From assembly GCF_036588685.1 (NCBI RefSeq), contig NC_086375.1, positions 69,316,001-69,380,000 on the forward strand: a stretch of DNA of 64,000 nt, written 5' to 3'. Positions 19,929-64,000 of this stretch are shown here, in pieces; the stretch's first letter is position 1; the number at the start of each line of letters is the position of its first letter. Both the position numbers and the translations under genes were made by a program. The notes under the pieces were generated by a model. That model was given only the letters and a program-made list of their open reading frames with translations. It was not told where the DNA came from and made no database searches. The stretch comes from Mytilus trossulus (taxonomy: Eukaryota).

Positions 19929-22900
19929 TCATAATTCTGTTTCAATTGTCCCAAATTGATAGTTGTCCCATATTTGATCAAATAATGTTGCACAGTCAAC
20001 CTGACTTTCTAATTTGGCACATAACAGAAAAGATCCAGCCATTTTTCTGTGTAAGGAATAAGTTTCCTCTGGTGGTGGTGTGAGTCTATGTTTAGCCATG
20101 ACGGGTATCTGGTCTTGAATCTGACTAGCTGTAGACTGTTTACCAAAGTCAAATGGTTCTTTGCTTGCAAATGCTCTGCCTAAAATCATCACTGATTCTA
20201 TATGGGCTTTCTCCATAATCTGAAATTATTAAGGTGAGAAAAAGTTTTAACAAAACCCATGTTAACTGGACTATAATAGAGGGAGGGTAGGAGGGGTCCT
20301 GATCCCGAAATCCCGGGCTTAAAAACATGAAATCCCAAGGTCCCTAAATTCGAAAAAAAGAATTCCCGGATCCTGGAAGGGTCAATCCCGAAATCCCGAG
20401 CTTAAAAATACCCAATCCCGGAGTCCCGATAAAGGTCCTATCCCCCCTCATAATACAGCTGCTGTCATTTAGTCTCTGGTTGAGTGTTGTCACATTGGCA
20501 ATCATACCACATCATCTTATTTTAATAATACTATGATATTTGTTCCAATGGCATAAATTCTTTAGCAATTTTTAAATAGACTTGATCCCTACAAAATTTT
20601 AATTGAAGATAACAAATGACAGATTATATTCAACCAATGCTCCTTATTGTAGGCATTAAAACTATAAAGATTTTTCATTACCTTAGTTTCATATCCTGTA
20701 AGGAAGCCTGTGGCCTGAGACCATTTCAGTATTCCATCCCTGTCTTGATCTCTGGCTGATTTTATAATCCTGATGTAATCATCAACAAACTTTTTATGGA
20801 ATTCTCTAGTGGCACCAAAATCTAACAGAATCACCTATAAAGTAGAAACTTTGTATACTTGCTAGCTTTTATCAATTTTACAATGAAAGGCTGAAAATTA
20901 TTTAGAGGCTGTAAGAGGCAGAGGAGGTAACTGCATCCTCAATCTTATTCATATTGGCCAAAAAAAATCATAAAATAAAAGAAGAATTTGCCTATGGGAC
21001 ATAGATTCTCCTGCTTGAAAGTATGCATGAGTCAATGAACTAATTTGTACCTATTGACGTTCTGTTTTCTTTGACATTTCCTTCAGTATGTTGTCTTTAG
21101 AGATTGTTTTGATGTTTGACGTCACTCAAGTTGAACTGTGTTTGGTAGTTCATTGTGTAAAAAGCATTGGGTATACACGTAAGTTTTATAACATTTGTTA
21201 GAGGCATAGTAAAGTTACAGTGTTGAAACACTTAATTCACCATTTTTTTCTTTATTGGCTCTTTCTTTCTTTTCAAAAACTGTATTTTACTTTTTTTTTA
21301 TTTTTACTTAAAAATGTGAATCCAAATCTTTTTTTTATAGATTCTATATAACAGTGCAATTTACCTTTTCCTTCCAAATGCTGCTTTTACTCTTTCTCTC
21401 TAAACACTGTGTATTTTACTCTTTCATACTTTAAAAGACTGTATTTTACTCCTTCTTACTTAAGACTGTGTATTTTACTACTTCTCTCTAAACACTGTGT
21501 ATTTTACTCTTTCTTTCTTAAAACTGTGTATTTTACTTCTTCTTTCTAAACACTGTGTATTTTACTCTTTCTTTCTTAAAACTGTGTATTTTACTCTTTC
21601 TCTCTAAACACTGTATTCAACTCTTTCTTTGTAAACTCTGTGTTTTAATCTTTCTTTTTAAACACTTTTTTACATATTCTTTATATTACTTTTTTTTCTC
21701 TTGAACACTTGTTTATTTTACTCTTTTTCTCTAAACACTGTGTATTTTACTCTTTCTTTCTTAAAACTGTGTATTTTACTCCTTCTTTCTAAACACTATG
21801 TATTTTACTCTTTCTTTCTAAACACTGTGTATTTTACTCTTTCTCTTTAAACACTGAGTTTTTTACTCTTTTTTTCTAAACACTGAGTATTTTACTTTTT
21901 CTCTCTAAACACTGTATTTTACTTCTACATTCTAACAAATGTGCAGTTTACCCTTTCTCTCTAAACACTGAGTATTTTACTCTTTCTTTCTAAACACTGA
22001 GTATTTTACTCTTTCTTTCTAAACACTGAGTATTTTACTCTTTCTTTCTAAATGCTATTTTTGTCTTTCTTTCTGAACACTATATTTTACTCCTACTTCT
22101 AACCAATGTGTATTTTATCTTTCTTTCTGAACACTATATTTGACCTACCTTATCTGTTTTAGGATCGTAGAAGAAATTTGACCAGTTAGGATCTGTCTGC
22201 ATAAATCTCCATTCAAATAATTCTGTTAAAGTTAGATATAGTAAATTTTGACCAATCTGAAATGAGAAGGACTTAAAATTAATGATATGAAGCAAAAAAA
22301 CTGATCTGACTACTGACTACCTTTTTAAAATTAACAATTTCATATCTTTGACTGAAGGATTCAGTTTGATTTGTAGTTAAGGCAGTATTTTATTTTTGAC
22401 TTTCAAGTGTGTATTTGAAGAAATATATGTTTTCTCTTCATTTCAATCTAAGCAACAATTAAAAGCAGTAACTTCAAAAGTTCTGCAATTTCCAAGAAAA
22501 CAATAATGATAATGACTCATCATTTTTTAAGGGAAAATGGTGATTTTATTACCAAAAATCTAATCATACTTTAGAAAAGAAGGTCCTTTCAGATTGTCTT
22601 CTTTGAGTACTTTTCTCAAAATTAAAATGATTTATTTGTCCTGTATACATTGTTTGTTATGTATCTTCAATCTAAGTGACTGAATAAACTTGTAGTTAAA
22701 CTACTGTATCAGTCAACACCGAGGTTTAGAGTTTGACTCCCAAACATGGCAGGTACTCTTGACTAGAAGAGTTGGGATCCCACTAACATGTTTAACCCTT
22801 TTTTTGTACATAAATAAGGCTGTTAGTTTTCTCTTTTGAATTGTTTTTCATTTGTGATTTCAGGATTTATAGATTACTTTGCAGTATGGGCTTGCTCATT

Positions 22901-25900
22901 GTTGAACGCCATACAGTGACCTGTAGGTGTAATTTTTGTGTCATATGGTCTCTTGTGGAAAGTTGTCTCATTGGCAATCATACCAAATCTTCTTTTTTTA
23001 TACAATCTTAATTGATTACAGGTAGGATAGTCAGTTTTCCTATGGCTTCTCTCTGGCTTCCTCCACCAATAAAAACTGACCACCATGAAATCACACAATA
23101 GTATTGTAAGTGGCATTAAACACCAATCAATAAATCAAGTAACCTGCTTGTTATTATATAGCAAAGATGCATATTATACAGTAAATACTTCCTTAGGTAT
23201 GACTGTAGGGTGTCAACAATGGAGGTATAATACAGGTGCAAGTTAAGTAAATGGACACAGTAATGTGTGCAATACAAGAGCAACAGTAACCACTTATATA
23301 TATCTTTGAATAGGTACAATTCATTCTTCAAATAAACATGCTCCCACAGTTTATTCCTAAGGAATTCAATTAAAAATGCACTCAATACATTTAAAATTTA
23401 GGGTAACATCAAAATGTTTCTAAAATGCACATCATTCACTAACTGTAAGAGCTAAATTGTATTTTAATTTCATAATTTCATTCGGTGTCTAGAGAAACTT
23501 GAGGTTCCTAGGTTTGAATTCAAAAACATGATAGTGATGATCATTGCCGTCTTCTTTAAATAATGTTTGTTTGTTTGTAAAAAAATATATTCTTAAATAC
23601 ACACTTCAAGGACTATGCTCAACTGAAATAAAGACCTACAATTTATTCTCTTACTTCAATGCCAGTATAATATTATATATTTCATAAAAATCAGGTTCCT
23701 TAGCAGTCATTTTAATCACTCTATTAATGACCAATACAATGAAATTAATATCTCAATTTTCTTGTTTATCAATTTTGCTATATATACTGTTTTTTTTGTA
23801 TCCATTTTATTTTCAAGAAAACATCCAAAAACCTTAATCTTGAAAATGAAAAACATGATATCTATAAGATTGGTTCTTTGTGTTTTATTCATTGTTAGTT
23901 GTTTTTTTGTGCTGTGTGCCTGGCAGATGAGCAAAGCCCTTTTCTAATGATTTTTTTATAGAGATTAGTTTATTGTTATATTGTGTTACACCAAATATAT
24001 CAAACCAAGCCTGTGCCAAGTCAGGAGTCTGTAATAAAGTGATGTCTTTGGTTGCTTTCCATTATATTTGTTTTTTGTTAATTGTTCTGTCATTAATCAG
24101 CTCTTTTTTTTTGAGTCCATATGACAGTCTGTCAGATATCATAGCTTTCAAGAATCCAAATTTAAATATCTGTGGACTGGTGAATGATAATCAACGAGAA
24201 ACACAGCTCGACAAAACTCTTAACCATTACATGACAGCTTGAAAAAGAGGTCAAACCAAGGAAGGTACATAATCATGATGAGCAAGGTCTAACCCTAAAT
24301 TAATTCCATGGAAATTTTGGTTGACCTAGGAGGTAAAGAGAACAAGTCATTTGCAACAATTTACGTATAAGTAATATTAATGATTCTTCATTTTGGCAAG
24401 AGATTTTCCATAAAATTCAGGGAACAAACTTTTTTGGAAAGTGCAATAAAGTATGGTACAAGTAGTTGACGTGTCTGTCAAATGTTTATGATGTTGGGTT
24501 AGTACTATACATCCAGGGGAGATATCACATACTTAGAGTATAAGTTTATGTGATACAAATATGAACCCTGCTTTTTACTAGACCAACAAGCTACTTGTCA
24601 AAGGAACAGTCACACTATTCTAACCCTGAGCCATCCGGTCTTTGCTCTTACTACTACTTACTTAACTGCAGCTTGCTAAGAAGTAGCTTTTACTTATTTT
24701 CAAAACAAACCAGCCAATCTGAACTAAAGACCTCACGCTTTGAAGGTTAGGACAGGAGACAGGAATTACATAAAATACTATACAGTACAAATGGACATAA
24801 ACCTTCTATCAGCTCCTTTAAGAAGGACTTTAAAAACAGACGTTCAAAACAAAACAACAAACAAATGGTTTAAATAGTCTGCCTTGTAATCGACACAAAA
24901 TGATATGGAATTTTTAAATGCACCTCTCATTCAAATTGTCAAAAGTGATTTTTTTTAAATTATTTTTTCTTGTATATTTTTTGTTAGATCCAATCAAACC
25001 TGTGATCAATGCATTTTTTCAGCATACTTGACTTTATCAAATAGCTTGCAGCAGAAAGTATAAAAATCTTTTCCAAACATTATAACCTATGGGAGATAAC
25101 TCCAAATATTTAGCTAGAAGTTCATCTGGTAAAAAAGGTTTAAAAAAATGTTTTGATTAATGAAGTTTTGAAATTAAAATAAGCAAATGATCTCCAATTA
25201 AATTCAGTAAAATCTAACCAATTCAAACAGTTTTATTTTTATTCTAAAAGCCATAAATATAATTGGATAGGAAAGTAAATTAGTTGTTAATATCATATCT
25301 AAGAAAAATATGTTTAGAAGCACAATACAAATACCCGATATATCTAACAAAATATAAAAGTTTAGAAGAAATATTATATACACATGTTGTTTTAAATTTA
25401 TAGGAAACTAAAGTCTGGTAGTCATTGAACTGTTCATAGAACTAGCCGTGTCACTTTTACTGAATGAGAATGTTCCGTCACTGAAAACACTATGTGGAGT
25501 ATCAGCATCGCTAGCGACACTTTGTGGTGTCTCACAATCAGATACATCTCCGTAAGATGATGTGATGCTATCACTTAAGTTAGATTGGAGAGGCTTAAGC
25601 ACCTTTTCAATTGTAAACAATGAACTTTTTCTGTTTTGAGATTTGGTGAAGTTGTATGTCCCTTTTATTCCATAATTTTGTTTCACGGAAGTCATTTGCC
25701 TAATACTAGATGTTTTTCTACAACAAACTATCATAAGAAAGGCAGTTCGGAAATCTTCTCTAAGCCAACAATATATGAAGGGATTTACAGCAGAATTACT
25801 CATAGCAAGAGTCAAAAAAATATTTTTGATCATCTCTGATGAGTCCTTATTGTTAGAAATGTACTTTATAATGCAGCCAATCATAAAGGGGATCCAGAAT

Positions 25901-28900
25901 AGGTAGAACAGTATAGAAATCAGTCCCATCATCTTAGCTGATTTTGTATCCCTCTTAAACTGCCTTCGTCCAAACACCTTATTGGAGGAGGTGGACCTTC
26001 TCTCTAATTGACGTTTACTATAGCTAACTGTTTCTTGATAGATTTTGAAATACAAGTAGGTTGTAATTATAATAGCTAGCATAATAACAACTGGTGTGGT
26101 AAGAATTGTATATGGCACCGGTAATACCGTGAAAAAGTTACAGATGTGAGTTACGTTATTATTTAATTCATTGTAATGATTCCATCCAATCAATGGTAAG
26201 AAAGCCACAATCACATGATACATCCATATACCAACTATTAAAAACATAGCTCTTCTTTTGGTCATTGTTACACGATAAATTAACGGTCTTGTAATAGCAA
26301 TGAATCGGTCAAATGCAATGGCAACAAGGCTTATCAAGGATGCACTTAACGTTCCCAGTGCAAAGCTATACTTTATTAGACAGAGATATTTTATTCTACT
26401 TAAAGCATCACCATGGAAATAAAAGCACACATACAATGGTAAAGTCACCACACCTAGCAGAAGATCAGCCATAGCCAGACTTCCTATCAATAAATTGGTT
26501 GTGGTTCTAAATTTCGGAAATCTGTACAAAGTTATAATAACAAGAGAGTTTCCAATAAATATAAAAGGAATCATGATTGCAACAACACATCCAAATATAT
26601 CATCCGTTGAAATCGAGTAAACAGTGTCATCAAAACTTAAATTCCTTCTTTCAGGAAAACAATCCTGAGTATTCCAAAATGGATCTTCCTCCTTGCTTAG
26701 TAGATCCTCCATCTCAGTTCTTGCTCTTTCAATAAAATATGCTGGAGACTATAAACATTCTATATAATATCAACAGCCAGTAAATGAACTTTTAACAAAT
26801 GCAAAACAATTAATCTTCCTCTTTCTACTTAATATATTATGATGTGGTATTTGTTTTTAACTGATAAATTAACAGAATGAAAGATTAACTTTCAAAATGA
26901 ATCAACACTTATACTATAGATCTCGACTGACATTTAGAGTAAGGGAATTTCCCTTAAATACAGTGAGTTCATTTAAGCTAAATTGTATTCATTTACATTT
27001 ATAAGCAAAAAAAAATTTAACTAATTAAATTTAGTTAAATTCCATTATAAGATTTTTTTACTTTAAAAGTTCTTATTATTTAAAAACATAATTTCTTGAC
27101 TTTTTTATGTGTATTCCATTTTAGATATTAAAATCTTACATTAAATTTATTTTGTGTATTAAAAAGTTCAAAAATTTATTCTTAAAAATTTGATCTACAG
27201 TATCTTACAGTTTTGAAAGTTTGAAGACTTATGTAGGACATATAATACTGAAGATCTTGTCAAATTTCTAACATGTCTAATAACACATGTGTTTTATCTC
27301 TCTGAAACTCACTGACTTTTTGTTTCCATTTAAAAACAAGACAATTATGTACTTTTAAAATTACATAACTAGATCAGTCATTGGATATCAAGATAGAAAC
27401 ATACTTTGAAAACAGTTTAACCTATCATCACAAGTAAGATTTGTTAAAGCAGTCACTGCATAGTAACATAGTATATTTAACACCTGTACAAAGTGCACCT
27501 TTTATAAATCAAATATGTACTTTTATATGGAACATAACTTAGAGTATTAGAATTCCATTTCAAACAACTAAAAGGAAAACCAAAACACAGATGATTTTTT
27601 TATTATGAAAATCTGTCTCTAGCAAAAAACAGGTAAAATGGTCTTATGTAGTCTCTAAGAGCAGTAATACAATAATAAGTGAATCCACACGAAACACTCG
27701 CAGTGACACAGTGACACTTAGTCTGTAAGACATCATCATAACAATCAGCACAATATATGTTAACATCTCAGGTGCTGAAGATCCTGTACTCACCTGCAAA
27801 TTTTATATCGACCTCATTAGAGCACTAGAAGTGTAAAGTAGAGGCTGTTAGGTCTAAAGTGTACCTCTCTTCATAGACATAGGTATCTATGCCTGAATAT
27901 CAACAAAAGATTTGGTATGATTGCCAAAGAGACAACTTCCACAAGAGAACAAATGGCAATGAAATTATAAACTATAGGTCACTGTACAATCTACAATCAA
28001 CAATGAACAAAGCTCATACCGTATAGTCAGCTATAAAAGGCTAAGAAATGAAAATGTAAAATGATTCAAAGGAGAAAACTAACAGCCTGATTCATAGACC
28101 CACTGACTGCCTAAAAGGGGGCTCCACTTCAGTCATGTTTGGAGGCAGTGTTGTAAGGTAAATATTATTGCACCAAAGTCTGAGAACAACCATAATAAAT
28201 CACATCAGTCAAAGGTAAGCATTTACAGCATGTGTACAAAGTCAAGTCTACAGAAATATTGTGGTAAGACAAGCCATTTATTAACATAAATTTAGGAAAA
28301 TTTTCAGGTGAAGACATACTTTTATACATTGACTAGGAATTAAAGAGGATTTTTATCTACATTAATGATACACCTATACAAATAAGTATGATCAGCAATA
28401 ATCATTAAAAGATAAATATTAAATTATCAAATAATTTTATCTAAACACTTTATAGATTTAATTTTGATAAAGACGTGATCTCAAGTAATCAAGTCATAAT
28501 AAATTTATATAAATATGGCAACATCTTTACCACAAGAACAATGTCCATCCTTATGCCAGTTGTGTAATAGAGATCCAAAAATAAAATGGAAATGTGTGGA
28601 CTGTGACCTACTGATGTGCATACAATGTAAAAACAATATACATAATAAAATCAAAACAGAGCGACAGCATAGAATCATTGACATTAAGGAAGTAAGCAAT
28701 GTAGAACTGCAAGCACCTGCTACTGAGGTTCATATAACTAGTGACAAGAAATATTCAACTAGAATGGATTACATCAGGTGTTTAGCTGTATCCCTGGATG
28801 GTTCTCTGTGGATTGGTGATGGAAAGGTTGTATTTCACCCATTCACTTATGTCACTCATGCTACAGCACTGCAGAAAGTCATTGTTGAAGATGATAAACT

Positions 28901-31900
28901 CAAGGTAATATCTAGTTTTAATGTAGCAGTGCTAGATGTTGCAGTAACTCCGACAAATGATCTCCTTCTAGCTACAGGGGAATCCAGACTGAAACAGATC
29001 AGTTCAGGCTCAAGTAAAATTATAGACTCTACATACTGTGCAGATTTTGCCAAGTTAGAGAGAGTGCATGTTGATGCAGGTGGTCGAGTAGTAGTTGCCG
29101 GAGAAGCTCCCTTTCCATACAAAGTTGTAGTTATCATTATGAATATGGACGGCAGTGTTGCAAATGTGTTTGACAATGATAAAAACAATAAACCTATAAT
29201 CGACAGCTATCCACAGTCGATTACAAGTACAACCAATGGCAACATTTTTGTAGTGGATGGTAGTAAAAGAGTCATGGTGTTTGGAAAGACTAATATCAAT
29301 TTCTATAAAGGACAACATGGCATTAACTCACAGGAATATTCATTTGACCCCCAGTCTGTGGTGACTACCATGTCAGACAATGTTGTAGTAGCCGACTTTG
29401 TCAATAGTGTATTACACATTATAAACAATACTGGATATCTCTTGACCACCTGTGATACAAAGGATATAGGGATATTACATCCCATTTCTTTAGCTATTTG
29501 CTTGGCTGGAAAAAGTAGTGAGCTGTTTATAGGATGTTGGACATCAAAAGACACCTCTGACAAAGCAAACTTGTGCAAGATAAATATATCAGGGAATTAT
29601 TTGTGATTAAATTATGTGATGACACTTTTCCTTGCTGTGTGATTTTAAGCAAAATTCAAATGGTTCTAATAAAAATTGGTGTCCATTTTTTTGTGTATCA
29701 CAAACAAAAAAATGGTCCCTGAAGGACATAATGAAAACTTATTATAAAAAACAACCTATGTGCCTTGACAACACACCCATACCATTACACAACAACAAAA
29801 TATGCAGTCATATAAAAAATGATTTGAGCTTGGCTATAAGCTCTGAAAAATAATCAAAGTTGATTAGTTGTCTGTTCTAAGTAAAGACCATACTTAGTAA
29901 ATAATTAGAGATTCTAAGGAGTTATAAGCTGCTTCCTGTACATTTTTTTGGTTTTTCATTTAACTTTGATTGCTTGGGGACCTGTATGGTTAACCATTGA
30001 TTTTAGACAAGAACAGGTAATAACAGGTTATAACAGGTGTATAACACTGACATGAAAGTCTTCCTTAGTGATGATGGGATGGATATATAAACTATCTATA
30101 CCCTACACTGAAAAGGTGCCACACAAATTTAGGATGTAACAGGTCATAGTCTTGAAAGTGCAAACAATGGCCTTTTCCTTCAGACAAGATGAATTTTGTA
30201 TTGACCTGTACTGTGACCTGTACACTTTGTGTTATTTTTATTTCAGTACAAATGTATAACTATTACCATGATTACAAGACTATCAAACCCATAACTTGTT
30301 CATTATCTTTTGTTTTTTATTTTTTTTCTGTTAAGAACCGTTAGTGTATGTACTTTGTGTAACACTTTTGTAAGTTCGTATCTTCTTTTTTAATATATAT
30401 GATCAGCTAAAGGCTGGTCGACTTTGAGTCAGAATAATGTATCAAGGTAGGGTGCCACATCTTCCTTAGGCCTAAAATAAAATATTGTTTGTTTCTCCAA
30501 TCCCAACCAACCCTGCAAAATTGGTGCTACTCATAAAATTTTATTGTCAAAACTAAGTCAAATATTATTTTATTCATTTTGGATTTTCAATCTTGCAGGA
30601 TCGTGCAATAATGTTCAAGCTTTTTGGAAAAAATAAAATCATTTCCCTACCTTCCTACACACACCTGGCTTGGCAGGGTTGGGATTGGGGAAACAAACAA
30701 TATTTTAATTTGGGCCTTATAACAATGTAAACTAGCATGTTAAAATTCTGATCAGCGTGTTAGTGTAGTAAAAAGCAGTGTTCATAACTTCATATTCATC
30801 AGATTTACTTATTCTTGTCCTAAATATGCATTTAATTTGCATATAAAATTCAAGCAGTTAGTGAAAGTTAACATCATTTGTTTTTAAAGCAACAATCAAG
30901 TAATCTCAATCTCAACCTGGTGAAATTAATAATTAAGAGGTGCACAAATAAATGTAGCATAAAATACTTCTTCTTTTCATATATTCCTATGCACATTGTA
31001 GATCCTTCTGTCTTGATTTTTTAAGTATTTTCAAACCCAACATGTTTTGAAATGATATACCCTAATAATATACTAATAAGATGGGGGCGGTGGTAATTTC
31101 ATAAGATAACCTTTTCATTTCACACAACAAACTAGTAAATAGACATTTGAACCTGATTTTGGTCATCTATACTATTAAACGAGAATACCTCATTTTTGGT
31201 GTCGCTTCTCTTCTTTCCACAATAAAATAATCAACACGCCTGTGTGTCCTATAGGTACAGTGCATAGTCGCATTTGTCATCCATTCATATGATTATTCAG
31301 ATTGAGTTATTTTGGGAGAAAAACGAGAAAAAAGGCATCCGGATATTGTCCCGTCATTGGACGAAATTTTAAGTCTGATTAAACTTCCGGTTTGTGTTTT
31401 CCTGTATACTGTATTTTAAAAATTCTATCTGCTATCATTTTCAAGTTTACTATCCACGGCGGTCACATAGTTTATTAAATAGAGAGGGTCTGTATACTTT
31501 ATCAATGACCACCATGGATCGATTAGTAAACTTAAAATTGAAAGTAAATACACTATATTTATATACTGTATATATATACTGTATTTTAAAAATTCTATCT
31601 GCTATCATTTTCAAGTTTACTATCCAAGGCGGTCACATAGTTTATTAAATAGAAAGGGTCTGTATAATATATCAATGACCACCATGGATCGATTAGTAAA
31701 CTTAAAATTGAAAGTAAATACACTATATTTATATAGTAAGTAATGAATGATAATAATATACAGATAAGCGCTAAAATTATTCATGTGAACTTTTGATACC
31801 TTTTCTGAAATTCTCCAGTTATTAAATCTTTTATCTTTTACAAAATTCATACAAGATTACAAAAAAAGAAGATGTGGTATGATGGCCATGTTGAGACAAC

Positions 31901-34900
31901 TCTCCACAAGAGACAAAAATAACACAGAAATTAACAACTATAGTTCACAGTACGACCTTCAACAACGAGAAAAGTCCATACCGCATAATCAGCTTTAAAA
32001 GGCCTGAACTGACAAGGTAACACAATTCAAACCAGAAAACTAGCGGCCTTATTGATGTACAAAAAATGAACAAAAAACAAATATGTAACACATAAACAAA
32101 CGACAACCACTGAATTACAGGCTCCTTAATTAAATGTTCATAACATACTCAATGTATTATGTTCATATTGAAATTGATCGAAAACCAAAAATTGGGAATT
32201 TTGGAAATAAAGGAGGAGGGATATAAAAAAACATTTTCCTGTCCCCAATAACCTATGACTTACGATACTTTTGCTGAAATTCCCCACTAAATGTATTATG
32301 TTCATATTGAAATTGATAGAAAACCAAAATTGGGAATTTTGGAAATAAAGGAGGAGGAATAAAAAAAATCACATTTTCCTGTCCCCAATAACCTTTGACT
32401 TATGATACTTTTGCTGAAATTCTCCAGTCATTCAATATTTTACATAATTCTTCCAACAACACTTTACATACTTTCAACTACGCTCTGAATGCCCGCGATA
32501 AATCGCGGGTGTGTTCTAGTGGGAATAAATCTCTCAAAGTGTAATGTGCTCCAAATATCTATCATTGACATAGTAACTTTATACATAATGGAAAATAAAA
32601 AATTGATAAAAAATCTTTGTAAAAATATTCTTATCTATTATGCCAAATTTATGATTCTTACAAACAGATTTTTAACACAAACATTATACATTGAGAGAAG
32701 GGAGATAACTCTAATTAGAATCATTCAAATACTTCATGAGAGTGTTCACAGTTGTTTTAAAGGCTTAGATTCTCATGAAAGTTTCTTAAACTATATGATA
32801 GATACAAGTGATATTAGGACTGGAACAACAGAAATACATTGGTAATCTCTATGTTAGAAAATAGTGGGCTGACATGATCACAACACTTTAACATGTAAAC
32901 TATGCAAAATACTCTCAAAGTCAATGGACACAACAGAGTGGAGGAGTCAATAGGATCTCATTGGAAATGAGTTATACCAATCATTATACAACTGTATTTA
33001 AAAAATATTGACTCATGCATAATCAGAATAATTTAATTACTAACTTTAACAGTTAACTTAGCAGAAGTTTCCATATCAAAGAACTCTGACTGAGGGATTC
33101 TACCTTCCTAATATCATTGACCTAAACTGAAGCTTTAACAAACGTTGATGACAGCAATGCCACTAGGAAGAACACTTTTAATCGAAATAAAAGAAGAATA
33201 TGTCCATGGGACACATATGTTCCAGCTTGTTAATATGTGAGAGTCAATGCTAAAGTAACTCAAACCAATTCTTGATGTGTTAATGTATTCATACTGTTAA
33301 TGTTTTTGGACACTTGTCAGTTCTAACCAATCAAATCAATTCAAATTCACTAATTAACACAAAGAAGTCATTCATTTCCATCATAAAACAAGCACTTTGA
33401 ATCTTCTAAATTAAATTTCATGATATTTCAATTCATAAAGTTTGGTCTTGTAGGTGTCAGGACTTCCTTGTTCACAGGTACCTCCTATATATAAATGACC
33501 TGACAGAGACATAGCTAGAGAATATGGATTGTTGATTCCTATGTCCAAGAGATTGTGGAAGGTAATGAACTGTCCATTACTATCTAAAATATGTAATGTT
33601 TGGGTTTTAATATCTGTAACAATGGTACCACCTGATAAAATTGTTGATATATCTCCAGGAATAAATGGTCTGTCAACATTGTTGATTTGAGGATGACCAG
33701 AGTATATATGTATGACATCTCCTCCACGTGCTAGAACTACTATTCTACCTCTTTCATCAGTATGACATAACATAGTGTCTAAAACACATATATTACCATC
33801 TTTAGTACAAGTTATGTTTGCAGGGTGTGTAAATAATGGTATATTGTTATTATCATGTTCATATTCCATTAGGCAACTCCCTTTTTGATCCATGACTATC
33901 ACAACACATCTTACTGTGGCACCCATGTCTTCTTCTGAAGATCTACCTCCTACTATGACTCTCTGATCTTGAGTTACATGTATGGAACATGACTTTAAAG
34001 GATGAACACTGTATACTGAATCTGTCATCTCTCCTGTCTTTATATCAAATAATTTCAGCCTTGTGTCACCAGTTGATATAAGTATGTCACCCGAAGGACT
34101 GACTGCCATGCCAAATATCTTGATGGTGAAGTTAGCTATCACTTTGGCACTGGTTTCCTCTAACTTCACATGTTGCAGTACTTCTGATTGATTGCTCGGT
34201 ATCAACAGTGTTTTGTCAGATAACTCAGTTAGGAAATGAATACTTCTAATATCTGTAGTATAGGTTTTAACTACTTTGGTTGTTTCTGAATCTGAATCTG
34301 AAGTTTCTGAATCAGAATTTGATGTTTCTGAATCAGAATTTGATGTTTCTGAATCTGAATCTGTTTTTTCTGAATCTGAAGCTGCTGTATTTAGTTGATC
34401 AAACTCACTGACTATAAGATGCTCTTTAATAAATTCAGATATTGATCCAAAATTTTCTTTAAGTGGTTCAATATCACAATTCAATGATGAAATTAATTCA
34501 TCAAATTTCTCAAAGAACTGACTGAAATCTTTTGAACTCGTTATCATGTCAACAATATCTATGAACTCCTTAATCTTTCCTTTTTCTCTATCAAGGTTTG
34601 TCAATTCTGTATCAATTGTCTGATTCACTGATTTAATTTTCTCGTCCAATTTAAAAAGTATGTCCTCTCTTGCTTTTTCATGGACATCTTCTATTGCTTT
34701 ACTATACATCTCATCCTCCAATTGTTTAATATTATTCAGTTTCCGTTCGTCCTTACAGAGTTGATCTATTTTTTTCACTGCACTTGTTTTTCCTTCCCAT
34801 ATTTGTTTTTTCTTACAAAGAAAATCTTCTTCACTTACAAACTTATGTCCATTATGTACTGTCATTAAACATTTTACACAGACAACTGTATTACAAGAAC

Positions 34901-37900
34901 TACAGTACGAACAGCAGACCTCATCAACATGTTTCTTACAATGCACATCACTAAAGTTCAAACTTTCTCCTGAATCTAGCTCCCCTATATCACAAATACT
35001 AATAATTTTGTGGACTTTAGCAATTCTAAGATGTATGTTGTCTTTACAACTGGTGCACATTAAAAGCGGACAATTTGTACATTTCCACTGAATTGTATTT
35101 TTACCCTGACAGAGCTGACATCCAATGGGAACCTGGCCTCTCTGGACCGAACTTGCAGTCCCCATTTTAAAAGAAGATCTTTAAAACTGTTATTATAACT
35201 AAGTCCACTATCAGATGTTTAAACAGTTTTATATTAAAGTTAGTAAGATTGGTAAATACCAAGCTGTCAATGGAATTTACAAAATCATTGTACCGGTAGC
35301 TGTTTTAAAACTTATCTCATTTATTTGATAAATTCAATATCAAAGTACATACAATGTGTATCATACCAAATGAAATCAATATAAGATCAATAATTCGGTA
35401 ATTTTTTGTTGTTCAGTAATATACTGAACAAATAAATGGGGAATTTGTCCATGGGACACAGATGATGCCCCCACTTGCATATCATATAAGGTTATAAAGG
35501 CACATAATTGAAGAACGGTAAAAGTGAAGCTATCCAAATTTGTACTACATCTGAGTTTTGTGGAAATAATAATTGTGTATATGTCTCATAAGAATTGGTT
35601 GAGGCTATTTTATCACAGCTCTTCAAGAAATCTCAAGTATTGGCACTTTCTTAGTTCTCACTACTACTGTACTATTTTCCACTATCATACATCTGTTTTC
35701 TCAATCACTATACCATTTGTTTTTTTCAGAAGTTTATTACAAAATTTTAAATACTTTAAAATACATATCCATTTTTAAAGATTGAATATCTGTTAAGATG
35801 TATGCATGTTGTTATGTCTGCATTGAATAACAGAAGATGCCCGCTAGTATATAAAGCTACAAAAAGACATAGCTTAAGAACTGTAAAAGTGACACTTCCA
35901 AAAATTGAATTAAAACTCCAGTTAAAGAACGAAAACGTAAAGTCTATCATTTTTTTTCATTTGTAAAGGGGCATTACACTAGAAGAGTAATAAAAGTGCT
36001 TGTAAGCACTGAACTGTAAAGATTGCTTTAATTTATCAGTAGGAACTGCATTACAAGTATAAAGCATTGGTTGTAGTTGATTCAACCATCATTCTGGACA
36101 AAGAAAGATAACTCCAATTTTCAGAGAATACTTTTAAAAATTTTTACAAAAAAATGGAATTTAGCAATTTTTCCGTTTGTAAAGGGCATAACTTTAGAAT
36201 AATAAAAGTGACACCACCAAAATTCAAACTTGCTCTGTGTTTTGTGGATATAAGCATTGTTTATAAGTTTCGTAATATTTGATTGAGGCAAACTACATTT
36301 AGAGAACAGAAACCAATTTGGGAGGTAAGGACGTACATACAAAGGTTAGAATTAATGTGTCCTCCGCTACGGCTTGGGCATAAAAAGCAAATGCATCTAT
36401 CATGGGATTTAAGGAAAAGTTGGTTTAATGAGCTTTATGGGAATCTATAATCTAACGATACTTTTTTTTCACAAAATATTATATGGAATATGTATGTGGA
36501 TAAAAATGTAATTATGTTCATGATTAACATAGACATTTTTTTTTTTTTTTTAATGACCAACAATAAATATATTTTTTTTATTTGCGTTTTAAAGTTTACA
36601 TACTCAGCATATATCAAAGGCTCAGCATATATCAGGTAAATCTAGACATGTTGTAAACAATCAATGTGCTTGTTGAATTTTACCTAAAATTTTATTATGA
36701 CAAGTAAGATAAAAAAAATCACAAGCATAAGGTATTAAAATTATATCACCGTCCTCATTGGCTAGGAATATAGATATTGCTCTACGACTGATGGGGCCTG
36801 GAGAGAACACTGGGCAAAATGAGTCAATGCAAGTTCTAAAGTACAAAAGTTATGTTCAAGATATCAATCAATGAAAGATTGACCTGCCTTTGGTAAATGT
36901 ATATGTATGTGAAACTTTTAATGTAGAAAAGTTATAAGCTGGACATGAAGGATATACTTCAACATGTTTGATAGGGGTAAAACTTCAGTCAGGGTGACCT
37001 TACTTTTGTATATGGCATAACCCTAGCCCAAAATAAGTCTGCTAATCATGTTCAGAGGTACTTCAGTAGAATCAATATCTAAAAAATGTTTAAAATCGAT
37101 TATAATTAATTTCAACAAGCAACATACACTGAGTTTATATTAAGAAGCCAAGGTTTTATGCAAACTATGACATAGCCCATTTACTGTTCCTTGGTCATAA
37201 GAAGGTTTTAGAATATAAAATCAGTCGTTACTTATAATCAAATTTCCAGCTTAAAAAACTCACATTTTCTACCTTGCACATATGGAGTTATCTCCCTTTG
37301 AGCACAACTTTGCCAAGAATAAGCTACTGTGGATTCTTTATTATTTGTTGGACACAAATTTAGTGGATTTCTTGTGTACAAATGAACTACCAATTGAACT
37401 TATCAACAAATTGCAAATCTGCTATCAGGTTGTATGTCAACTTTTGCAAAACCACAAAATCAAATATCCACTTAAAAGACAGTTTTTTTCAATTCACGAA
37501 AATTAGTACCCATGAAAAATATTCAGTATCACAATTGCGTGTCTGGCAAATATGGGTCAATAATAAATCGAAAAGAAGAACCAAATTTAAATTCTCCATG
37601 GGATGCAGCTTGATAAGACAGCAAAGATGGAACCATGAACAGTTGGGGCAATTATGGTCACTACATTCTAGCTTGATATATCTCAGAATTTGGATTTTGT
37701 AAAGATATTTGACATAGCATAGGTTTCTGACACAGATTGAATGTTGTCTAAGAACTCAAGTTATTGTCTGGAAACCAAATATCTTCTGAAAAGAATGATA
37801 AAGTAATGAATTTTGTGCCAATCAATATCAAAATTTTTGTGCTCATATACCGTAAAGCGTAAATTGAACATGTTGAGGTAAAAGTGAACATGTGTTTGTT

Positions 37901-40900
37901 AAAGTGTGACTTGAAGTGAAACCTCATAACATAAAGGCACAACATGAAGATTATATTGAAATCAGATTGGAGACAGCTAGTATGAGCTCTATATAATCCT
38001 ATATGCCCTATTAGTCACTCTATTACTTATACTATACAATGATATGAACAACAACTCACTTTATTTCTGGTTTCTTGGTCCAAGTCTACACACTGATCCA
38101 ATGGTAAACCTTCTACATACTCTGTTGTTAATATCTCTTTGGTGCTTAATTCATTTATCACTTCAGGTACATAGAAATTATCATTGTCGGCTAAAAAGTT
38201 CCTGAAAAATAAAATACTTAACAATGTACTAAGTATAATATGAAGTTTATTTCCCAAAAGCAAAAACGACAAGATTTTCCAAATCAAACATAAAACAAAT
38301 TTTAATCATTGGGGATCCATTTCAAATTCAACAATTCAACAAATTTATATATAGACATTGCAATATTCAAGTTCATTCAAGTTCTCAAACACTTTAAATA
38401 AATGGGTTTTCAATAAAACATTATATTAGAGTAAAGTAAGTAAATTCAATTCACCAACATACATATAACTTGAAAAAAATCTTTAATCATCTTAAAAGTG
38501 AAATAAACGAACAATTTGGCACGCCCATTAGTATTCAGTAAATAGAAATTTTATCAGCCATGGATGTGAAATGAATCACATGGTGACATAACCTCACATG
38601 AAGCTTGGTACACAAATTTAAGGAATCTCTGATTTATAGTTCCTCATATAAATCAAACACTGTTCCCTCTACTATTGAATTAAGGATATACACAATTTCA
38701 ATGAAACAATTAAAAGCTTTGATTTTTTATTTGCATGTCTATTAAAGAATACATTTTAGTTACACCTACTTGAATTTTCTTCCACATTCAGCTTCCCTCA
38801 CATAGTCAACTTCCCATGCTAATTCTATTTTGGCTACCTCCATCACATTTTCTACATACAGGCCTAAAAGTCAAAATGTTAATATGAATTTTTGAAACAT
38901 ATTGCCTTTTCTATGCAAGAAAGTCATTAATTTTTTTGGTATAAAAAATTCATAGAGAAATAATGTTAGCTTTGTTATCTAACAAATGCAAATCAAAATA
39001 CCAATCATGTTTCAAACTTTTTAATCTTTAGTGTCACTTACTAGAAGTCCTAGGAATGTCTGACATGTAAGCTTAATATTGCCTTATTTTCTATAAATAG
39101 CATCTTAGAAATTATCAAATGACCTCATGATATAAGACAACACAGAGGTTAATCAAACTCAATGCATATTTTTTTTATAAACAGACAAGTTATTGTAAAA
39201 CTACCCTATTATTTTGGAGAATACATGATTCAAACCATTATCTTAAAAAAAAAAAAAAAAAAATCCCACGCCCTATATTTGTATTTTGAATAAAACTCAA
39301 GTGTGTTGATCAAGGTTATTTTCATAGAAGGGCAATTTTTCAGCTAATTCATTTAAAAAAAAATTAAATGTAAAATCCACATTAAATGACCTATATTTCA
39401 TACTCCAGAGTTAGGAATGACATCAATAGTTCAATGTACGATAAAAAATTTAATTCACATAGTTTTTTCACTGACCCCCCCCCCCCCCCTCTTAACTTAA
39501 TTTTGAAAAAATTGATTTACCAATAGGGATATATGTAAAAATCGATTTTAGATATACAAAACTTGCAGAATTTTACCCCCCCCCCCCCCCCCCAAACTAT
39601 TTGAATTAAGTTTTTTTATCCTACATTGATCTTTTGATCGTCCCTTAATATAAACCTACCTTTAGGTAGAATATTGTAGATGTTAATTACTGACATCAGG
39701 TTATTTATATCACTGTTAATACTTTGAGCTACTCCTGGATACTGTTAAAGAGATAAAAAGATCATTTAAGATGTTTGCGTTTAGTCACAATGTCATCATA
39801 CAAGACTTTAATAATATTGCTGTTAAGAAGGCAAAGTAACTGTTCCAATAGCTTTTAAGACCAGTGTCGGATCCAGAGATGGGTTCCGGGGGATGGAACC
39901 ACCCTTTTTTTTGGCTGATCAATGCATTTGAATGGGGACATATAGTTCGAACCCCCCCCCCTTTTTTCAGCTGATTAATGCATTTGAATGGGGACATATA
40001 GTTGGAACCCCCTCTTGATCCTGGGTTGGGACCCCCCCCCCCTTTTCAAAATGGCTGGATCCACCCCTGAAGACAATAATTATAACAACTGTAATTAATT
40101 TTCTAATGAAATAAAATCTATATACATGTGGAGAGAGTACATCTTGAAAGTATTAAAAGTAAATAATTAAGTAAGACTTTAGATTTATAGGTGTGAAATG
40201 TACCTTCATTACTTACCTGTATTTTAATTGCCACCTCTCTACCATCATGAAGTACACCTTTATGGACCTGTCCTATAGATGCCGCAGCAAATGGCTTCTC
40301 ATCAAACGATTCAAGTTTATCCTGCCAGTCATTTCCAAGTTCTCTCCTCAAAACTTTCTGAATAACAAGATTTTTTATTAGAATATAAAAAAAAGTTTAT
40401 ATCAGAACTCTTTACCTAGACCTCCAACTTTGGGATTGACATATTGATGGTATAGACTTGTGATTACAGCCATTGACTTTGAAAACATTGTTAACGTTCC
40501 CTCCTAACAATTTTGTTAGCATGACTAATGAGAAAATAAAATACAGCTTCACAGAAATCCTACAATGTCTGTTTCACATTCAATATTAACCTTAAATGTT
40601 TTTCTTTGATACAGGTTTATAGGTATAGTGGAATAATAGTTTCATATATACATTTATATTGTTTCTCAGAGATATCCAGATTGCGCAATTGAACCGGGAA
40701 AATGAAAAAGCTGAGAGGAAAAATATTTATTATACTTTGAAAGGTTTTTTTACTTTTCTCCTGGTACATGATATTTTTTGCAGGATACCATGCGTATAAT
40801 TTCTATTGCAGTGACTTCATAATTTATAATTTATAAAAGATACTCATTGTGGCAAAATCGCCTTTGTTGCAAGAACACAATGTATGACCTGACTGGACTG

Positions 40901-51547: not shown

Positions 51548-54211
51548 TTACCTGCGTATCATATTATTGCAAACGGAGGATTTTTGTTCAAGCTTATTTT
51601 CGTTTTTTCTGAAATTGTTTCACATTTCAAAGCGATATAATACTGTTACTTTAATTGTGCATCCCTTATTTTATTCACTTTGTTTTTACATTGCATCCGC
51701 ATAGATCAAATTTATTCGTTCAGTGTATGTTCACTTGTGTTAATATATATATATGTCTCTTGATTGAATTAAGCCATTTCAATTGATATTTTATAGTGTG
51801 TCTTTTTATGTTGTGAGGTTGCTCTATTCTTTCAGATAAGGGTGAAGGTTCAAGTTGTATCCATTCAAACGTTTGAACCCGCTGCGATTGTTTGCACCTG
51901 TTCTAAGTAAGGAATCTGCTGTTAAGTAGTTGTCGTTTGTTGTTGTGGTTCGTAAGTGTTTCTAGTTTCTTGTTTTTATATAGGTAAGACCGTTGGTTTT
52001 CCCATTTGAATGGTTTTACACTAGTAATTGTCGGGCCCTGGAGCACATACCACAGCTTCTTATATCTTCGAATTCATAATTTCTAAATAATTAAGTGTTG
52101 TAATACCACTGTCCCAAGTTCTGTTGGGGTTGAGTGCACACATACATGGTTTTATAGAGGCCTCGTCTGAATTGTATCTTTTTTTTTTTGGTGTCGGGGC
52201 CTTTGTGGCTGACTATTAGAACGTCACGCACGATGTTCCTACAACCCCTATGATTTAAAACAGAATCTTTGAAATTTCCTCCGCAAAACAAAATAAAATG
52301 TTAATTAACGCTAACCACTATAAAAACTAATTCAGTATACATGTATGTTTTCCTTTATGTTCTTATAGCTCTTGGTCATATGCTTAGTAATATCTAGTAT
52401 ATTTGAGGAGTAAAACAACAAAGCTATATGAAAAAACGGATGTCCAACGTTACATTTTTGAACAACTGTTTTATCTCTTATGTATAGTGATCCTATTTCT
52501 TATTCTCTGATCTTCCCAAAACTTGACAGAAGCAACGAAGTGTGTCAGTTCTTTCTTAAATTGAAGCCGTTCTTTTGTCGAATTTTGTTTGACTCGGTGG
52601 CTCCATATTAAGCTGGGATAAGAAAAGTGTCCAATGACGTTTTTCGTTGACTTAACGGCTAAAAGGTAGTTTTATAAGTAGACATAGCTAAAAATGTCTA
52701 ACAAATGTGAGATAATTATAACATCTGCCGAAAGAACAAACATTTGCCTCATTGTTCGTGAGTTTAAAAATAGTAGATTCTATAAAACCATCTCTACACA
52801 GTCGTTTTTCAAGCGGTAGCCATTTTGTCCAAGTTGATATTTCATTTGTCCAAGCAATTAATGCGGGTTTGTTACCTGATATTTCAATAAGTATTTTATA
52901 ATTTACCAAAGCAAAATTTAGATACACAAAAAGAACATAAAGTCTAGATTCTTTTTTTATTAACTGCATGTTTGGATTTTTACAGGAATAAAATGCTACG
53001 AAACATAACAAAACGGTAGCCATTTTGTCCCAACGTCGAGAAACCTCGAAAAAACAAACAAACGCTTTTTTTTTTCGACGTTACATGTGCAAAATTTGTT
53101 CCATTGTACATGTGTATTCCCGATACTTAAAACGAATCGTTTGGTGAAATTTAAAAAATAATTGCTGGTTGTCGAAAAAACCCACGGTGCATGTTGTGCA
53201 TGAAACGGAGGTAACTGAAAGACTTATCGGAAACAGCGACAAAACAGTTTCATTGAATTGATGCAACCCCGTATTATACGGACGATTCAGGAGAATATTA
53301 GTACATTTTGAAAGAAAGCAACTTCAAATGACTGGGAAAATATTTTCAAGATCGGGTTATGATAATTTATTTAATGGTTGTATTGCGACACGTTATGTGT
53401 CAAGCAATTTTTTAATACAGATCTATTCAAATTAATCAAGGGTAAATATGTTTTTATTTACGTGCAGAGTGTCGGATATATAAATATATATTTGTATAAG
53501 GGTAGAAACAAGATATGAAAAATGTACATGACATATGATATTCACCATGCAATCTTAGCAGTCTGCGAGTGAAGTTTTGTTATAATTCATTTATTGAAAA
53601 CCGTTTACCTCTGTGCCATTTTCCCTTCCTTCAAGTTCATTACTTACGACAATACAACATTTTAAGGTTAATTATGGGTAAAAATTATTTAATCGATTTC
53701 CACAACTTGATATAAATAAATTCATGGTAAATAGACATCACAAGTTTAATAGAGACATATTTAGAATCAACCAACTACACGAAAAAAGCAAATGAAACTT
53801 GCAAATTGAATAAACGTACGTCAAAAGTCTCAGAAAACTCTCTTTGACATCGTGGTGGTGTAACGTCGTGTTGTAGGAACATCGTGCACAACGTTTAGGT
53901 ATGAGTTTTTCTCATTGTCGAGGTTCGTTCGGTGACCTATTTTTGGCTATATCTTTGTCATTTGAACTCTGGTGGATAGCTGTCTCATTCATAATCATAC
54001 CATTCCTCTGTTCATTTATTAATACAGTGGTACATAGTTATCGATTCTACATGGTTATTATAGCCAAGTTTAAATTTAATTTGATTGATAAAATTAAAAT
54101 TATCTATATGAGACTACTATAACGTAATAGTAGTCTCAGTTTCTATTAAGATGTAAAAAATTTGAACGATATTATATGGAACGCCCTGACTGCCTTATGT
54201 TAATGATCAAA

Positions 54212-54830
54212 ATTATATTCAGTGCTCACACCATTATATGCAGTGCTCACACCATTATATGCAGTGCTCACAACATTATATAAAGTGCTCACAACATTAT
54301 AATAGGCGCTCACAACATTATATTAAGTGCTCAGAACATTATATTAAGTGCTCACAACATTATATGCAGTGCTCACAACATTATATGCAGTGCTCACAAC
54401 ATTATATTAAGTGCTCGCAACATTATATTAAGTGCTCACAACATTATACTAAGTGCTCACAACATTATATTAAGGTCTCACAACATTATATAAAGTGCTC
54501 ACAACATTATATGCAGTGCTCACAACATTATATACAGTGCTCACAACATTATACTAAGTGCTCACAACATTATATTAAGGTCTCACAACATTATATAAAG
54601 TGTTCACACCATTATATGCAGTGCTCACAACATTATATTAAGTGCTCACAACATTATATTAAAAGTGCTCACAACATTATACGCAGTGGTCCAAACATTA
54701 TATGCAGTGGTCACAACATTATATGAAGTGGTCACAACATTATATGAAGTGGTCACAACATTATATGAAGTGGTCACAACATTATATGAAGTGGTCACAA
54801 CATTATATGAAGTGCTCACAACATTATACG
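54212..54830. repeat. Minisatellite, 21-bp unit (agtgctcacaacattatatgc)
   Basis: About 29 tandem copies; produces the (CSQHYIK)n and (VVTTLYE)n ORFs. Confidence 0.95.
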
Positions 54831-63496: not shown

Positions 63497-64000
63497 GTTA
63501 GTTACATATGCATCTGATCAAACGCACCATGATTCTAATAAATGTCGTTTACTAATAGTCGTTTAAAAAAGTTTTAAAAGTTTACTGTCTGACGATGAAT
63601 TTATTTTTATTATCTAAATGTTCAATGCAAAATGATGTGTGAATGAAGGTAGACGGGGATATACGCGAACCACACAGCACACAAACGACTAAAAAACCTT
63701 AACAAATATATCAAGTTTTCAAAATGGTATTTGACAATTTAATTCACAGACCGTACTATATTTCCATTGATTTAGGTTGTCTGTTGAAGATATACGGATT
63801 CTTTTTAGGTGTCAGACCACCAATTAAAAATCCCTATCTGTTCAACCAAATTTTGCAATTTTCACAGCTTTCTAAATATTTTACCTTAAGTTTAACTTCA
63901 AGGAAACCAGGTAAATCCTGAATTGTACATGTATCACCCACCTTCCTACATGCCAATTTTCAACCAATGTTTAGTCTTGTAAGAAATTTATGATTTTGAA

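Follow-up and report, generated by a model that had tools for sequence, protein, structure and literature searches.

Three single-exon genes nested in one long intron of the mussel COQ8 gene, probably derived from separate insertions

Introduction

Nested genes in mammals favour the largest intron of their host, are not strongly biased towards either orientation and for the most part lack any correlation with the host gene, according to a survey of host/nested pairs (10.1101/2023.05.02.539096). The expectation that nested genes are mostly antisense, on which an earlier, sequence-only reading of the locus described here had drawn, holds only in mild form for mammals. In humans, a single intron of NF1 holds OMG, EVI2A and EVI2B (PMC4394429). 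Like the mammalian pairs, and with the reservation that the catalogue is a mammalian one, the nest in COQ8 occupies the largest intron of its host and contains genes in both orientations. As in NF1, a single long intron of COQ8 houses three protein-coding genes that have no relationship to their host. However, the NF1-nested genes are all antisense and lie in a 283-kb host, whereas the coding span of COQ8 is 25 kb and its nested genes comprise two sense and one antisense gene. A further difference from NF1 is that two of the COQ8-nested genes belong to a fast-turnover, lineage-specific family. Our literature searches found neither a paper treating gene nesting in Mytilus nor one describing a nest in COQ8; they also returned none on intronless G protein-coupled receptors (GPCRs) nested in host-gene introns, and none on bivalve or mussel TRIM, NHL, B-box and RING genes or dispensable B-box genes of M. 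galloprovincialis.

Results

COQ8 and its intron 10

All coordinates refer to a 64,000-nucleotide stretch of the Mytilus trossulus genome (NC_086375.1, positions 69,316,001 to 69,380,000), from now on referred to as the window. COQ8, an ABC1/ADCK3-4 atypical kinase, runs from start to stop codon over 19929-44927 on the minus strand and consists of 13 coding exons encoding 712 aa. This exon map agrees residue for residue (100%) with the 712-aa M. trossulus record 'atypical kinase COQ8B-like' (P0040), and the ABC1 domain is recognized on one of the exons (Pfam, E 1.1e-18). Coding exon 10 (38060-38200, minus strand; NFLADND...DQETRNK), the DNA of which has a single match in this genome, is followed by the donor GTGAGT with its GT at 38059. 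Coding exon 11, the catalytic-loop exon (22149-22256, minus strand; IGQNLL...QTDPNWSNF...KTDK), follows the acceptor TTTCAG ending at 22257. Intron 10 (22257-38059, minus strand, phase 0) is flanked by these canonical splice sites and spans 15,803 bp, while the remaining 11 introns measure ~346-1,314 bp, split codons moving some of their ends by a few bases. The exon map and splice sites confirm what had been read from the sequence alone, namely one 15.8-kb intron between DQETRNK and IGQNLL in a gene whose other introns are short. All three nested coding regions fall between these two consecutive exons and together account for 4,152 bp, or 26% of the intron.

Full-length 712-aa COQ8 joining DQETRNK directly to IGQNLL is present in several records. 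One of these comes from a 2,987-bp Logan contig, representing an edulis-type allele from an individual other than the one assembled here; the contig is too short to be genomic, so it must derive from a spliced transcript. These records indicate that COQ8 is still spliced across intron 10.

The nested GPCR

An intronless class A (rhodopsin-type) orphan GPCR of 434 aa is encoded on the host strand (25408-26712, minus). It matches the full 7tm_1 profile (PF00001, E 1.7e-49) and carries DRF (D/ERY-type), FWIPF (CWxP-type) and NPFIY (NPxxY) motifs, in keeping with class A membership. Automatic naming has labelled its database records adenosine A1-like or beta-2 adrenergic; in the Atlas, the closest cluster consists mainly of molluscan 'adenosine receptor A3-like' proteins. 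An aminergic receptor is ruled out by position 3.32, where Ala118 aligns to the Asp of the beta-1 receptor and replaces the aminergic Asp. Adenosine receptors have Asn 6.55, His 6.52 and His 7.43 in their ligand pocket. The nested GPCR has Cys, Met and Met at these positions, respectively, which argues against an adenosine receptor. Compared with invertebrate orphan 'adenosine-receptor-like' class A GPCRs, it has the 7tm_1 fold, DRF and NPxxY in common but differs by Ala 3.32 and by the same three pocket residues.

Identity to edulis/galloprovincialis-type proteins is 95-96% for the GPCR, 97.8% for the COQ8 core, and 88.4% and 86.5% for the two other nested genes, A and B. Rough dN/dS values, which are estimates combining nucleotide and protein divergences from different animals, are 0.07-0.08 for the GPCR, 0.21-0.26 for A and 0.32-0.41 for B, all below 1. 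On these estimates, strong purifying selection acts on the GPCR, an orphan receptor that has been conserved.

The nested B-box/NHL genes

Gene A (28515-29606, plus strand, antisense to the host; 363 aa) is a short-type B-box/NHL-propeller gene with one B-box, a weak NHL match (Pfam) and no coiled coil. Gene B (33411-35165, minus strand, as the host; 584 aa) encodes a RING-less protein of B-box1/B-box2/coiled-coil/NHL-propeller type. Pfam detects two B-boxes in gene B, with zf-B_box in two stretches (E 2.8e-07), while a structure model places helices at residues 112-228 and a propeller at residues ~300-580 (pLDDT mostly 70-93), the best Foldseek matches being the NHL domains of TRIM2/TRIM3 (E 1.7e-14). 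No RING was found in A or B by Pfam, nor any RING-like pattern in the reading frames upstream of either. Gene B is predicted to be a RING-less TRIM-NHL-like adaptor combining zinc B-boxes, a coiled coil and a beta-propeller, and would not be a self-sufficient E3 ligase because it has no RING. Its edulis ortholog is named TRIM71-like in databases. B-boxes, long helices and a propeller are common to gene B and TRIM-NHL proteins (TRIM2, TRIM3, TRIM71, Brat, Mei-P26), but gene B differs in having no RING, 11-19% identity to solved NHL domains and one coding exon; gene A differs further, being without the second B-box and the coiled coil. The family assignments of the three genes and the locus anatomy given in the sequence-only reading were correct.

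That reading had also described three intact single-coding-exon genes, two on the host strand and one antisense. This applies here, but 'intact' holds for this haplotype: among four other records of gene A, one is full length, one is without the B-box, one enters unrelated sequence past ~residue 110, and in one contig the gene is split into two ORFs. Gene A appears to be decaying in some lineages, judging from these broken records. In gene B, a 21-bp repeat at 34281-34388 adds 21 aa that the edulis and galloprovincialis orthologs do not have. For M. californianus and M. coruscus, the 12 matches listed for gene B include none at 60-83% identity; this is uninformative because the GPCR is also without a record there and nested genes are often unannotated.

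A and B are 33% identical in the propeller. A tree built from 47 propeller sequences groups A with its orthologs in a 15-row clade (99/95) and B with its orthologs in a separate 14-row clade (100/100), with path lengths to the nearest non-ortholog of 1.31 for A and 0.68 for B. The closest paralogs also lie on different contigs, A being 52-55% identical to a cluster on C10 and B ~60% to a locus on C2, and neither tree nor paralogs point to a common origin or joint movement of A and B. A recent segmental duplication bringing in either gene with its flanks was considered and rejected: for A, apart from a 38-nt repeat, nothing matched further than ~15 nt outside the coding region, and for B, homology to the C2 relative stops ~50 nt beyond each end. 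Inspection by eye of the 80 nt preceding loci L002-L035 revealed no splice acceptor directly before the ATG that the family would have in common.

Nested relatives elsewhere in the genome

Both families are large in this genome, with at least 117 candidate loci scored for the GPCR, at least 112 for A and at least 75 for B. The nested GPCR has a 63% identical, ortholog-like relative elsewhere; its nearest paralog in the same genome is 47-48% identical. A small survey of hand-picked top matches, covering 10-40 kb on each side and skipping members of a cluster at C7:65.8 Mb and a match at C7:85.16 Mb, placed three of seven GPCR paralogs inside host introns: NPC1 (~11.5 kb, antisense), SMG1 (~23 kb, sense) and CFAP61 (~13 kb, antisense). 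In all three cases the flanking host exons match the human protein, those on either side encoding consecutive or nearly consecutive residues. No host was found within 10 kb of the remaining GPCR loci (C7:6.54, C1:65.55, C12:5.95 and C3:74.02 Mb).

One of the ten B-box loci surveyed is clearly nested, between exons of an SRCR gene. Two paralogs lie beside, not inside, a V-ATPase subunit a gene (Pfam V_ATPase_I; C2:53.66 Mb) and a gene with a Pfam Myb match which we take to be CDC5L-like (C10:44.73 Mb). Those at C7:38.96 and C2:65.71 Mb likewise adjoin, without being contained in, genes that are presumably syntaxin-8-like and PRPF38B-like, respectively. C10:56.99 and C42:1.77 Mb showed no host, and the survey also took in C2:73.01, C2:1.34 and C10:77.34 Mb, without a host call. 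The earlier proposal that intron 10 acts as a special landing site is weakened by the GPCR relatives in NPC1, SMG1 and CFAP61 introns.

Discussion

The three single-exon genes of COQ8 intron 10 are unrelated to one another and probably arrived by separate insertions of intronless copies, not as one functional cassette. Several of their relatives have likewise landed in introns of other genes. Serial, independent insertion would have taken place into a tolerant intron: COQ8 can tolerate nested genes since splicing removes intron 10 in its entirety and full-length COQ8 results all the same. Of the three genes, the GPCR has probably been there longest, given its ortholog-like relative elsewhere and the much lower identity of its nearest same-genome paralog. 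A and B would each descend from a different subfamily of the B-box/NHL genes that have expanded and dispersed in mussels, and would have entered the intron through retroposition or DNA-level duplication, two routes that would be indistinguishable at this age. Each nested gene is presumed to have its own promoter.

An assembly error that put an unrelated 15-kb block inside COQ8 is extremely unlikely. No single contig from the DNA runs spans intron 10, which is rich in high-copy repeats: three copies of an interspersed repeat with very high read depth lie at 22799-23011, at 27896-28095 (between the GPCR and A) and at 31838-32134 (between A and B), with strand unassigned and the latter two in opposite orientation to the first. 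However, the same neighbours occur by consecutive accession in four other annotation sets, namely CAG2226304-308 of M. edulis (COQ8 C-terminus, GPCR, A, COQ8 N-terminus plus B), VDI20223-225 (COQ8 C-terminus, GPCR, A), XP_071163945-948 (COQ8, COQ8, B, GPCR) and XP_076097939-943 (COQ8, COQ8, one record not seen, B, GPCR). The same nested order is thereby found in three Mytilus species, M. trossulus and, from records, M. edulis and M. galloprovincialis, which argues against the misassembly that the sequence-only reading had named as its refutation. Equally drawn from that reading is a dispensable presence-absence island in an essential gene, with some chromosomes carrying a short intron 10 without the nested genes. 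Such an island would fit the massive presence-absence variation of Mytilus, with hemizygous blocks of up to 30 kb (PMC7653742), and a M. galloprovincialis scaffold with full-length COQ8 (VDI26937-9) contributed no nested protein to the clusters read. That scaffold would be explained by annotators modelling either the host or the nested genes, never both, and the dispensable genes of Mytilus include fewer GPCRs and kinases than their share (PMC7653742). All three nested ORFs are covered at low-copy depth in four of four DNA runs, a small sample that is biased towards presence, having been picked for containing this DNA. Each run bears a different organism label, and one may stem from the source sample; in run X1, both the GPCR and B occur as two alleles. 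With the order also kept in two other species, the island finds no support in this sample and is quite unlikely.

The shared order could in principle reflect a receptor-plus-adaptor module, as had been proposed, in which the GPCR and both B-box/NHL proteins act in one pathway and are held together by selection, and the estimated dN/dS below 1 for all three genes would agree with this. The order needs no selection, however, because the three species are closely related, and A and B come from different subfamilies. Nor do the three genes appear to share constraint or to be retained jointly, as dN/dS differs between them and A is frequently broken. No B-box gene was seen in the stretches read beside the nearest GPCR paralog, in NPC1, and in humans the majority of nested genes have no functional relationship with the host (PMC4394429). 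We regard the module as very unlikely. The three genes may instead have moved in from elsewhere as a single block, the genomes compared being those of the edulis complex. A different kind of coupling has been suggested, in which same-strand transcription of the GPCR or B ends COQ8 transcripts at a nested poly(A) site, or COQ8 is spliced into B, yielding COQ8 without its catalytic-loop and DFG exons and less coenzyme-Q synthesis in the cells concerned. Exon content bears out that truncation at exon 10 would remove QTDPNWSNF (catalytic loop) and the DFG exons, and a double AATAAA ~165 nt past the GPCR stop (25232-25243, minus, host strand) is a candidate poly(A) signal. Two M. edulis gene models (CAG2226307/8) continue in frame from DQETRNK into gene B at VCCSY, and such interference is documented for human nested genes (PMC3192792). 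On the other hand, host-strand AATAAA is not enriched in intron 10 (28 in 15.8 kb, 1.77/kb) relative to the remaining introns (14 in 7.06 kb, 1.98/kb). Downstream of the gene B stop, the first 1.5 kb contain no such motif. The fused models end out of frame and have implausible N-terminal extensions, resembling ab initio errors. In this genome, neither B nor the GPCR can be entered through an in-frame YAG acceptor that has a pyrimidine tract, and a COQ8-B fusion protein was rejected here, the acceptor being GAG without such a tract. None of 16 listed COQ8-cluster members ends at exon 10 (10 sequences read, the others judged by length). This coupling is unlikely, though if nested poly(A) use or splicing did truncate COQ8 in a regulated way, the locus would matter more.

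Under the favoured reading of separate insertions, the locus probably represents gene nesting of an ordinary kind, although it remains uncommon for an otherwise compact gene to hold three genes in a single intron. The COQ8 nest would be a clean example of big intronless mussel families spreading into core-gene introns, and the NPC1, SMG1 and CFAP61 cases suggest that many more such nests have been missed. The locus defeats automated annotation: COQ8 is split in two public sets, one of which also fuses it to gene B. RefSeq sets include models of the GPCR and of B. By exact match, the protein collection contains neither A nor B of this genome. A more far-reaching possibility, which we hold to be improbable, is that an intronless orphan GPCR clade of mussels colonises housekeeping introns (COQ8, NPC1, SMG1 and CFAP61; four of eight loci including this one). 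Intron 10 would then be a sink that also caught two B-box/NHL genes, and, once the same-strand GPCR is active, its poly(A) site or splicing into B would truncate COQ8 before its catalytic loop, tying signalling or immune state to coenzyme-Q synthesis.

It should be noted that the presence of two B-box genes in one intron is a coincidence on this reading, given that one in ten of the B-box loci surveyed is clearly nested.

COQ8 intron 10 holds three nested genes

COQ8 lies on the minus strand of the window (mussel DNA at G000:C3:69316001-69380000, 32% GC), from 44927 to 19929, and its 13 coding exons, when joined, give a 712-aa Mytilus trossulus record named COQ8B-like. Exon 10 ends with DQETRNK at 38060, followed by the donor GTGAGT, and exon 11 starts with IGQNLL at 22256, preceded by TTTCAG. 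The intron between them, intron 10, is a phase 0 intron of 15,803 bp; the remaining 11 introns measure about 346-1,314 bp. Three genes with a single coding exon, each a long open frame, are found inside it: a class A GPCR of 434 aa (25408-26712, minus strand), a B-box/NHL gene of 363 aa referred to as gene A (28515-29606, plus strand) and a 584-aa gene with two B-boxes, gene B (33411-35165, minus strand). Splice sites, exon map and open frames thus agree with the sequence-only reading, which had described a 15.8-kb COQ8 intron with two frames on the host strand and one antisense. Nested coding sequence accounts for 26% of the intron, and high-copy repeat for a large share of the rest. A 29-bp tandem repeat at 21385-22135, whose roughly 27 copies are rich in purines on the host strand, begins 14 nt past the exon 11 donor and occupies more than half of intron 11.

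The COQ8 intron nest is real. Misassembly of the 15-kb block into COQ8 is unlikely: no contig of the four DNA sequencing runs spans intron 10, as an assembly error would allow, but the same neighborhood recurs in other annotation sets, where it was read from consecutive accessions and is therefore indirect positional evidence. In M. edulis, CAG2226304 (C-terminal 165 aa of COQ8), 305 (GPCR), 306 (A) and 307/308 (N-terminal part of COQ8 plus B) follow one another, as do VDI20223, 224 and 225 (COQ8 C-terminus, GPCR, A) in M. galloprovincialis. The RefSeq sets place XP_071163945/6 (COQ8) beside 947 (B) and 948 (GPCR) in M. edulis, and XP_076097939/40 (COQ8) beside 942 (B) and 943 (GPCR) in M. galloprovincialis. 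The CAG series itself shows nesting inside COQ8, and nesting is conserved in records of three close Mytilus species. All three open frames are covered at low-copy depth in each of four DNA runs (out of 24 listed, with four organism labels), a sample that leans towards presence because the runs were chosen by carrying this DNA. Contigs of runs X16 and X18 are about 92-94% identical. Run X1, possibly the source sample itself and not independent, has two alleles in both the GPCR and gene B. In the clusters examined, one galloprovincialis scaffold is represented by full-length COQ8 (VDI26937-9) and by no nested protein, which could stem from the way it was annotated or from a genuinely short allele. 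In Mytilus, presence-absence variation is described as common, with GPCRs and kinases under-represented among dispensable genes (PMC7653742).

The nest is probably undescribed so far, as no literature on it or on Mytilus nested genes was found in a search whose coverage lacked most subscription journals and supplements.

Characteristics of the nested genes

The nested GPCR covers the complete 7tm_1 profile; among receptors of solved structure, the adrenergic and histamine H2 types are closest to it. Ala at position 3.32 together with Cys, Met and Met at 6.55, 6.52 and 7.43 indicates that it is neither aminergic nor a true adenosine receptor, the latter exclusion being based on the ligand-pocket residues typical of adenosine receptors. 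Judged by sequence, it is an orphan receptor. Identity is 95-97% among 13 cluster members, a more distant relative is 63% identical and the nearest paralog in the genome searched (G000) 47-48%. Over 25588-26530, run X1 carries a second GPCR haplotype besides the window's allele; most of its listed variants recur in X16 and X18, the pattern that introgression or a hybrid would give.

No RING is present within or upstream of gene A or gene B; both have a TRIM-NHL-adaptor-like build and fall outside the RING-bearing E3 family. A structure of gene B predicted from a 13-sequence alignment (mean pLDDT 66.6, B-box region poor) consists of long helices and a propeller, with the NHL domains of TRIM2, TRIM3, TRIM71 and Brat as top fold matches. 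The protein collection holds no exact match of this genome's A or B. Gene families expanded in bivalves include B-box genes (PMC8382680). Several B-box/NHL paralogs (stretches L020, L024, L026, L027) have a GGAAGT/AGAAGT-like motif 25-45 nt upstream of the ATG, which could belong to a compact promoter and was not seen ahead of gene A or gene B.

Gene A is full length in only one of four other records; a second has no B-box, which may reflect how it was annotated, and in a third the gene is split into two open frames on one contig. The fourth, the galloprovincialis model VDI20225.1, turns into unrelated coiled-coil sequence past about residue 110, which suggests an insertion or gap in that haplotype; this tail presumably resembles LINE ORF1.

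The nested genes had been proposed to form a receptor and adaptor module, which is not borne out. The propellers of A and B are 33% identical to each other; gene A reaches 52-55% identity with a cluster on contig C10, and gene B about 60% with one locus on contig C2. A tree built from 47 propeller sequences puts gene A and its two orthologs into a 15-row clade (support 99/95) and gene B and its two orthologs into a separate 14-row clade (support 100/100), placing them in different subfamilies. Constraint is likewise unequal. The GPCR differs from edulis-type alleles by 4%, gene A by 12% and gene B by 13%, and rough dN/dS values, combining nucleotide and protein figures from different animals, are 0.07-0.08, 0.21-0.26 and 0.32-0.41, respectively, indicating some purifying selection on all three genes. 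The incomplete state of gene A in most other records also speaks against a module.

Similar nests elsewhere in the genome

Flanks were examined for seven dispersed GPCR paralog loci and ten B-box paralog loci drawn from the top matches, using an exon finder that recovered eight of ten COQ8 exons in a control stretch. Three of the seven GPCR loci are nested in host introns. The nearest paralog runs antisense to NPC1 inside an intron of about 11.5 kb (G000:C11:65.175-65.187 Mb; L003, L048, L049), between exons matching human residues 972-1014 and those leading to 1033-1088. A near-identical copy on a small contig (C21:1.26 Mb; L004) may be a haplotig. About five further tandem copies of the 3' part of one NPC1 exon extend into the next intron (L049:4578-5391, 125-bp unit). 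The next paralog is sense in an SMG1 intron of about 23 kb (G000:C7:84.971-84.994 Mb; L050, L005, L051, L073), whose flanking exons meet at human residue 2389; within this intron, a 108-bp tandem repeat also takes up 8 kb or more. The third is antisense in a CFAP61 intron of about 13 kb (G000:C3:30.240-30.253 Mb; L054, L055), the flanking exons meeting near residue 1007.

Among the ten B-box loci, four are just outside genes, two are without a host found, three gave no clear call and one, a short-type B-box/NHL gene, lies in antisense orientation between SRCR exons of a gene for a multi-SRCR membrane protein (G000:C4:54.479-54.483 Mb; L068, L069), assuming that these exons belong to one gene. 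No-host results are weak because the SMG1 upstream exon was 17 kb away. With three of seven loci against one of ten, these intronless GPCRs are frequently nested in housekeeping genes and B-box genes occasionally so; a pair of B-box genes within one intron is a mild coincidence.

Possible consequences for COQ8 and probable origin of the nest

Nested genes could truncate or fuse COQ8, and a stop after exon 10 would delete the QTDPNWSNF and DFG exons. On the host strand, a double AATAAA is located downstream of the stop codon of the GPCR; AATAAA density in intron 10 (1.77/kb) is not above that of the other COQ8 introns (1.98/kb), and none occurs on the host strand within 1.5 kb after gene B. Two M. 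edulis models, CAG2226307-8, join COQ8 exon 10 in frame to gene B (34919), and the public CAG series also separates the COQ8 C-terminus from the rest. The fused models have odd N-terminal extensions and out-of-frame ends, the acceptor in this genome would be a GAG without a pyrimidine tract, and spliced full-length COQ8 is present in records. The fusions are probably annotation errors due to the nest. Given nested-gene interference described in human cells (PMC3192792), truncation or fusion is possible, though unsupported here.

Taken jointly, it is fairly likely that intronless copies entered intron 10 separately, the GPCR earliest, that each would be driven by its own predicted promoter, that the host tolerates them since the intron is spliced, and that gene A is decaying. 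Human NF1 likewise holds three coding genes in one intron (PMC4394429). More than one in ten mammalian genes is reported to contain a nested gene, which usually sits in the host's largest intron; orientation is little biased, and expression is for the most part uncorrelated (10.1101/2023.05.02.539096).

Other features of the window

Two similar exon copies of one gene (QQDYSKKF...; AKFDGIFNIGAVG...) are located at 57909-58643 and 62539-63498 on the plus strand, two scanned pieces of which gave no Pfam match. At 54208-54828, a 21-bp tandem repeat of about 30 copies yields a spurious long open frame.
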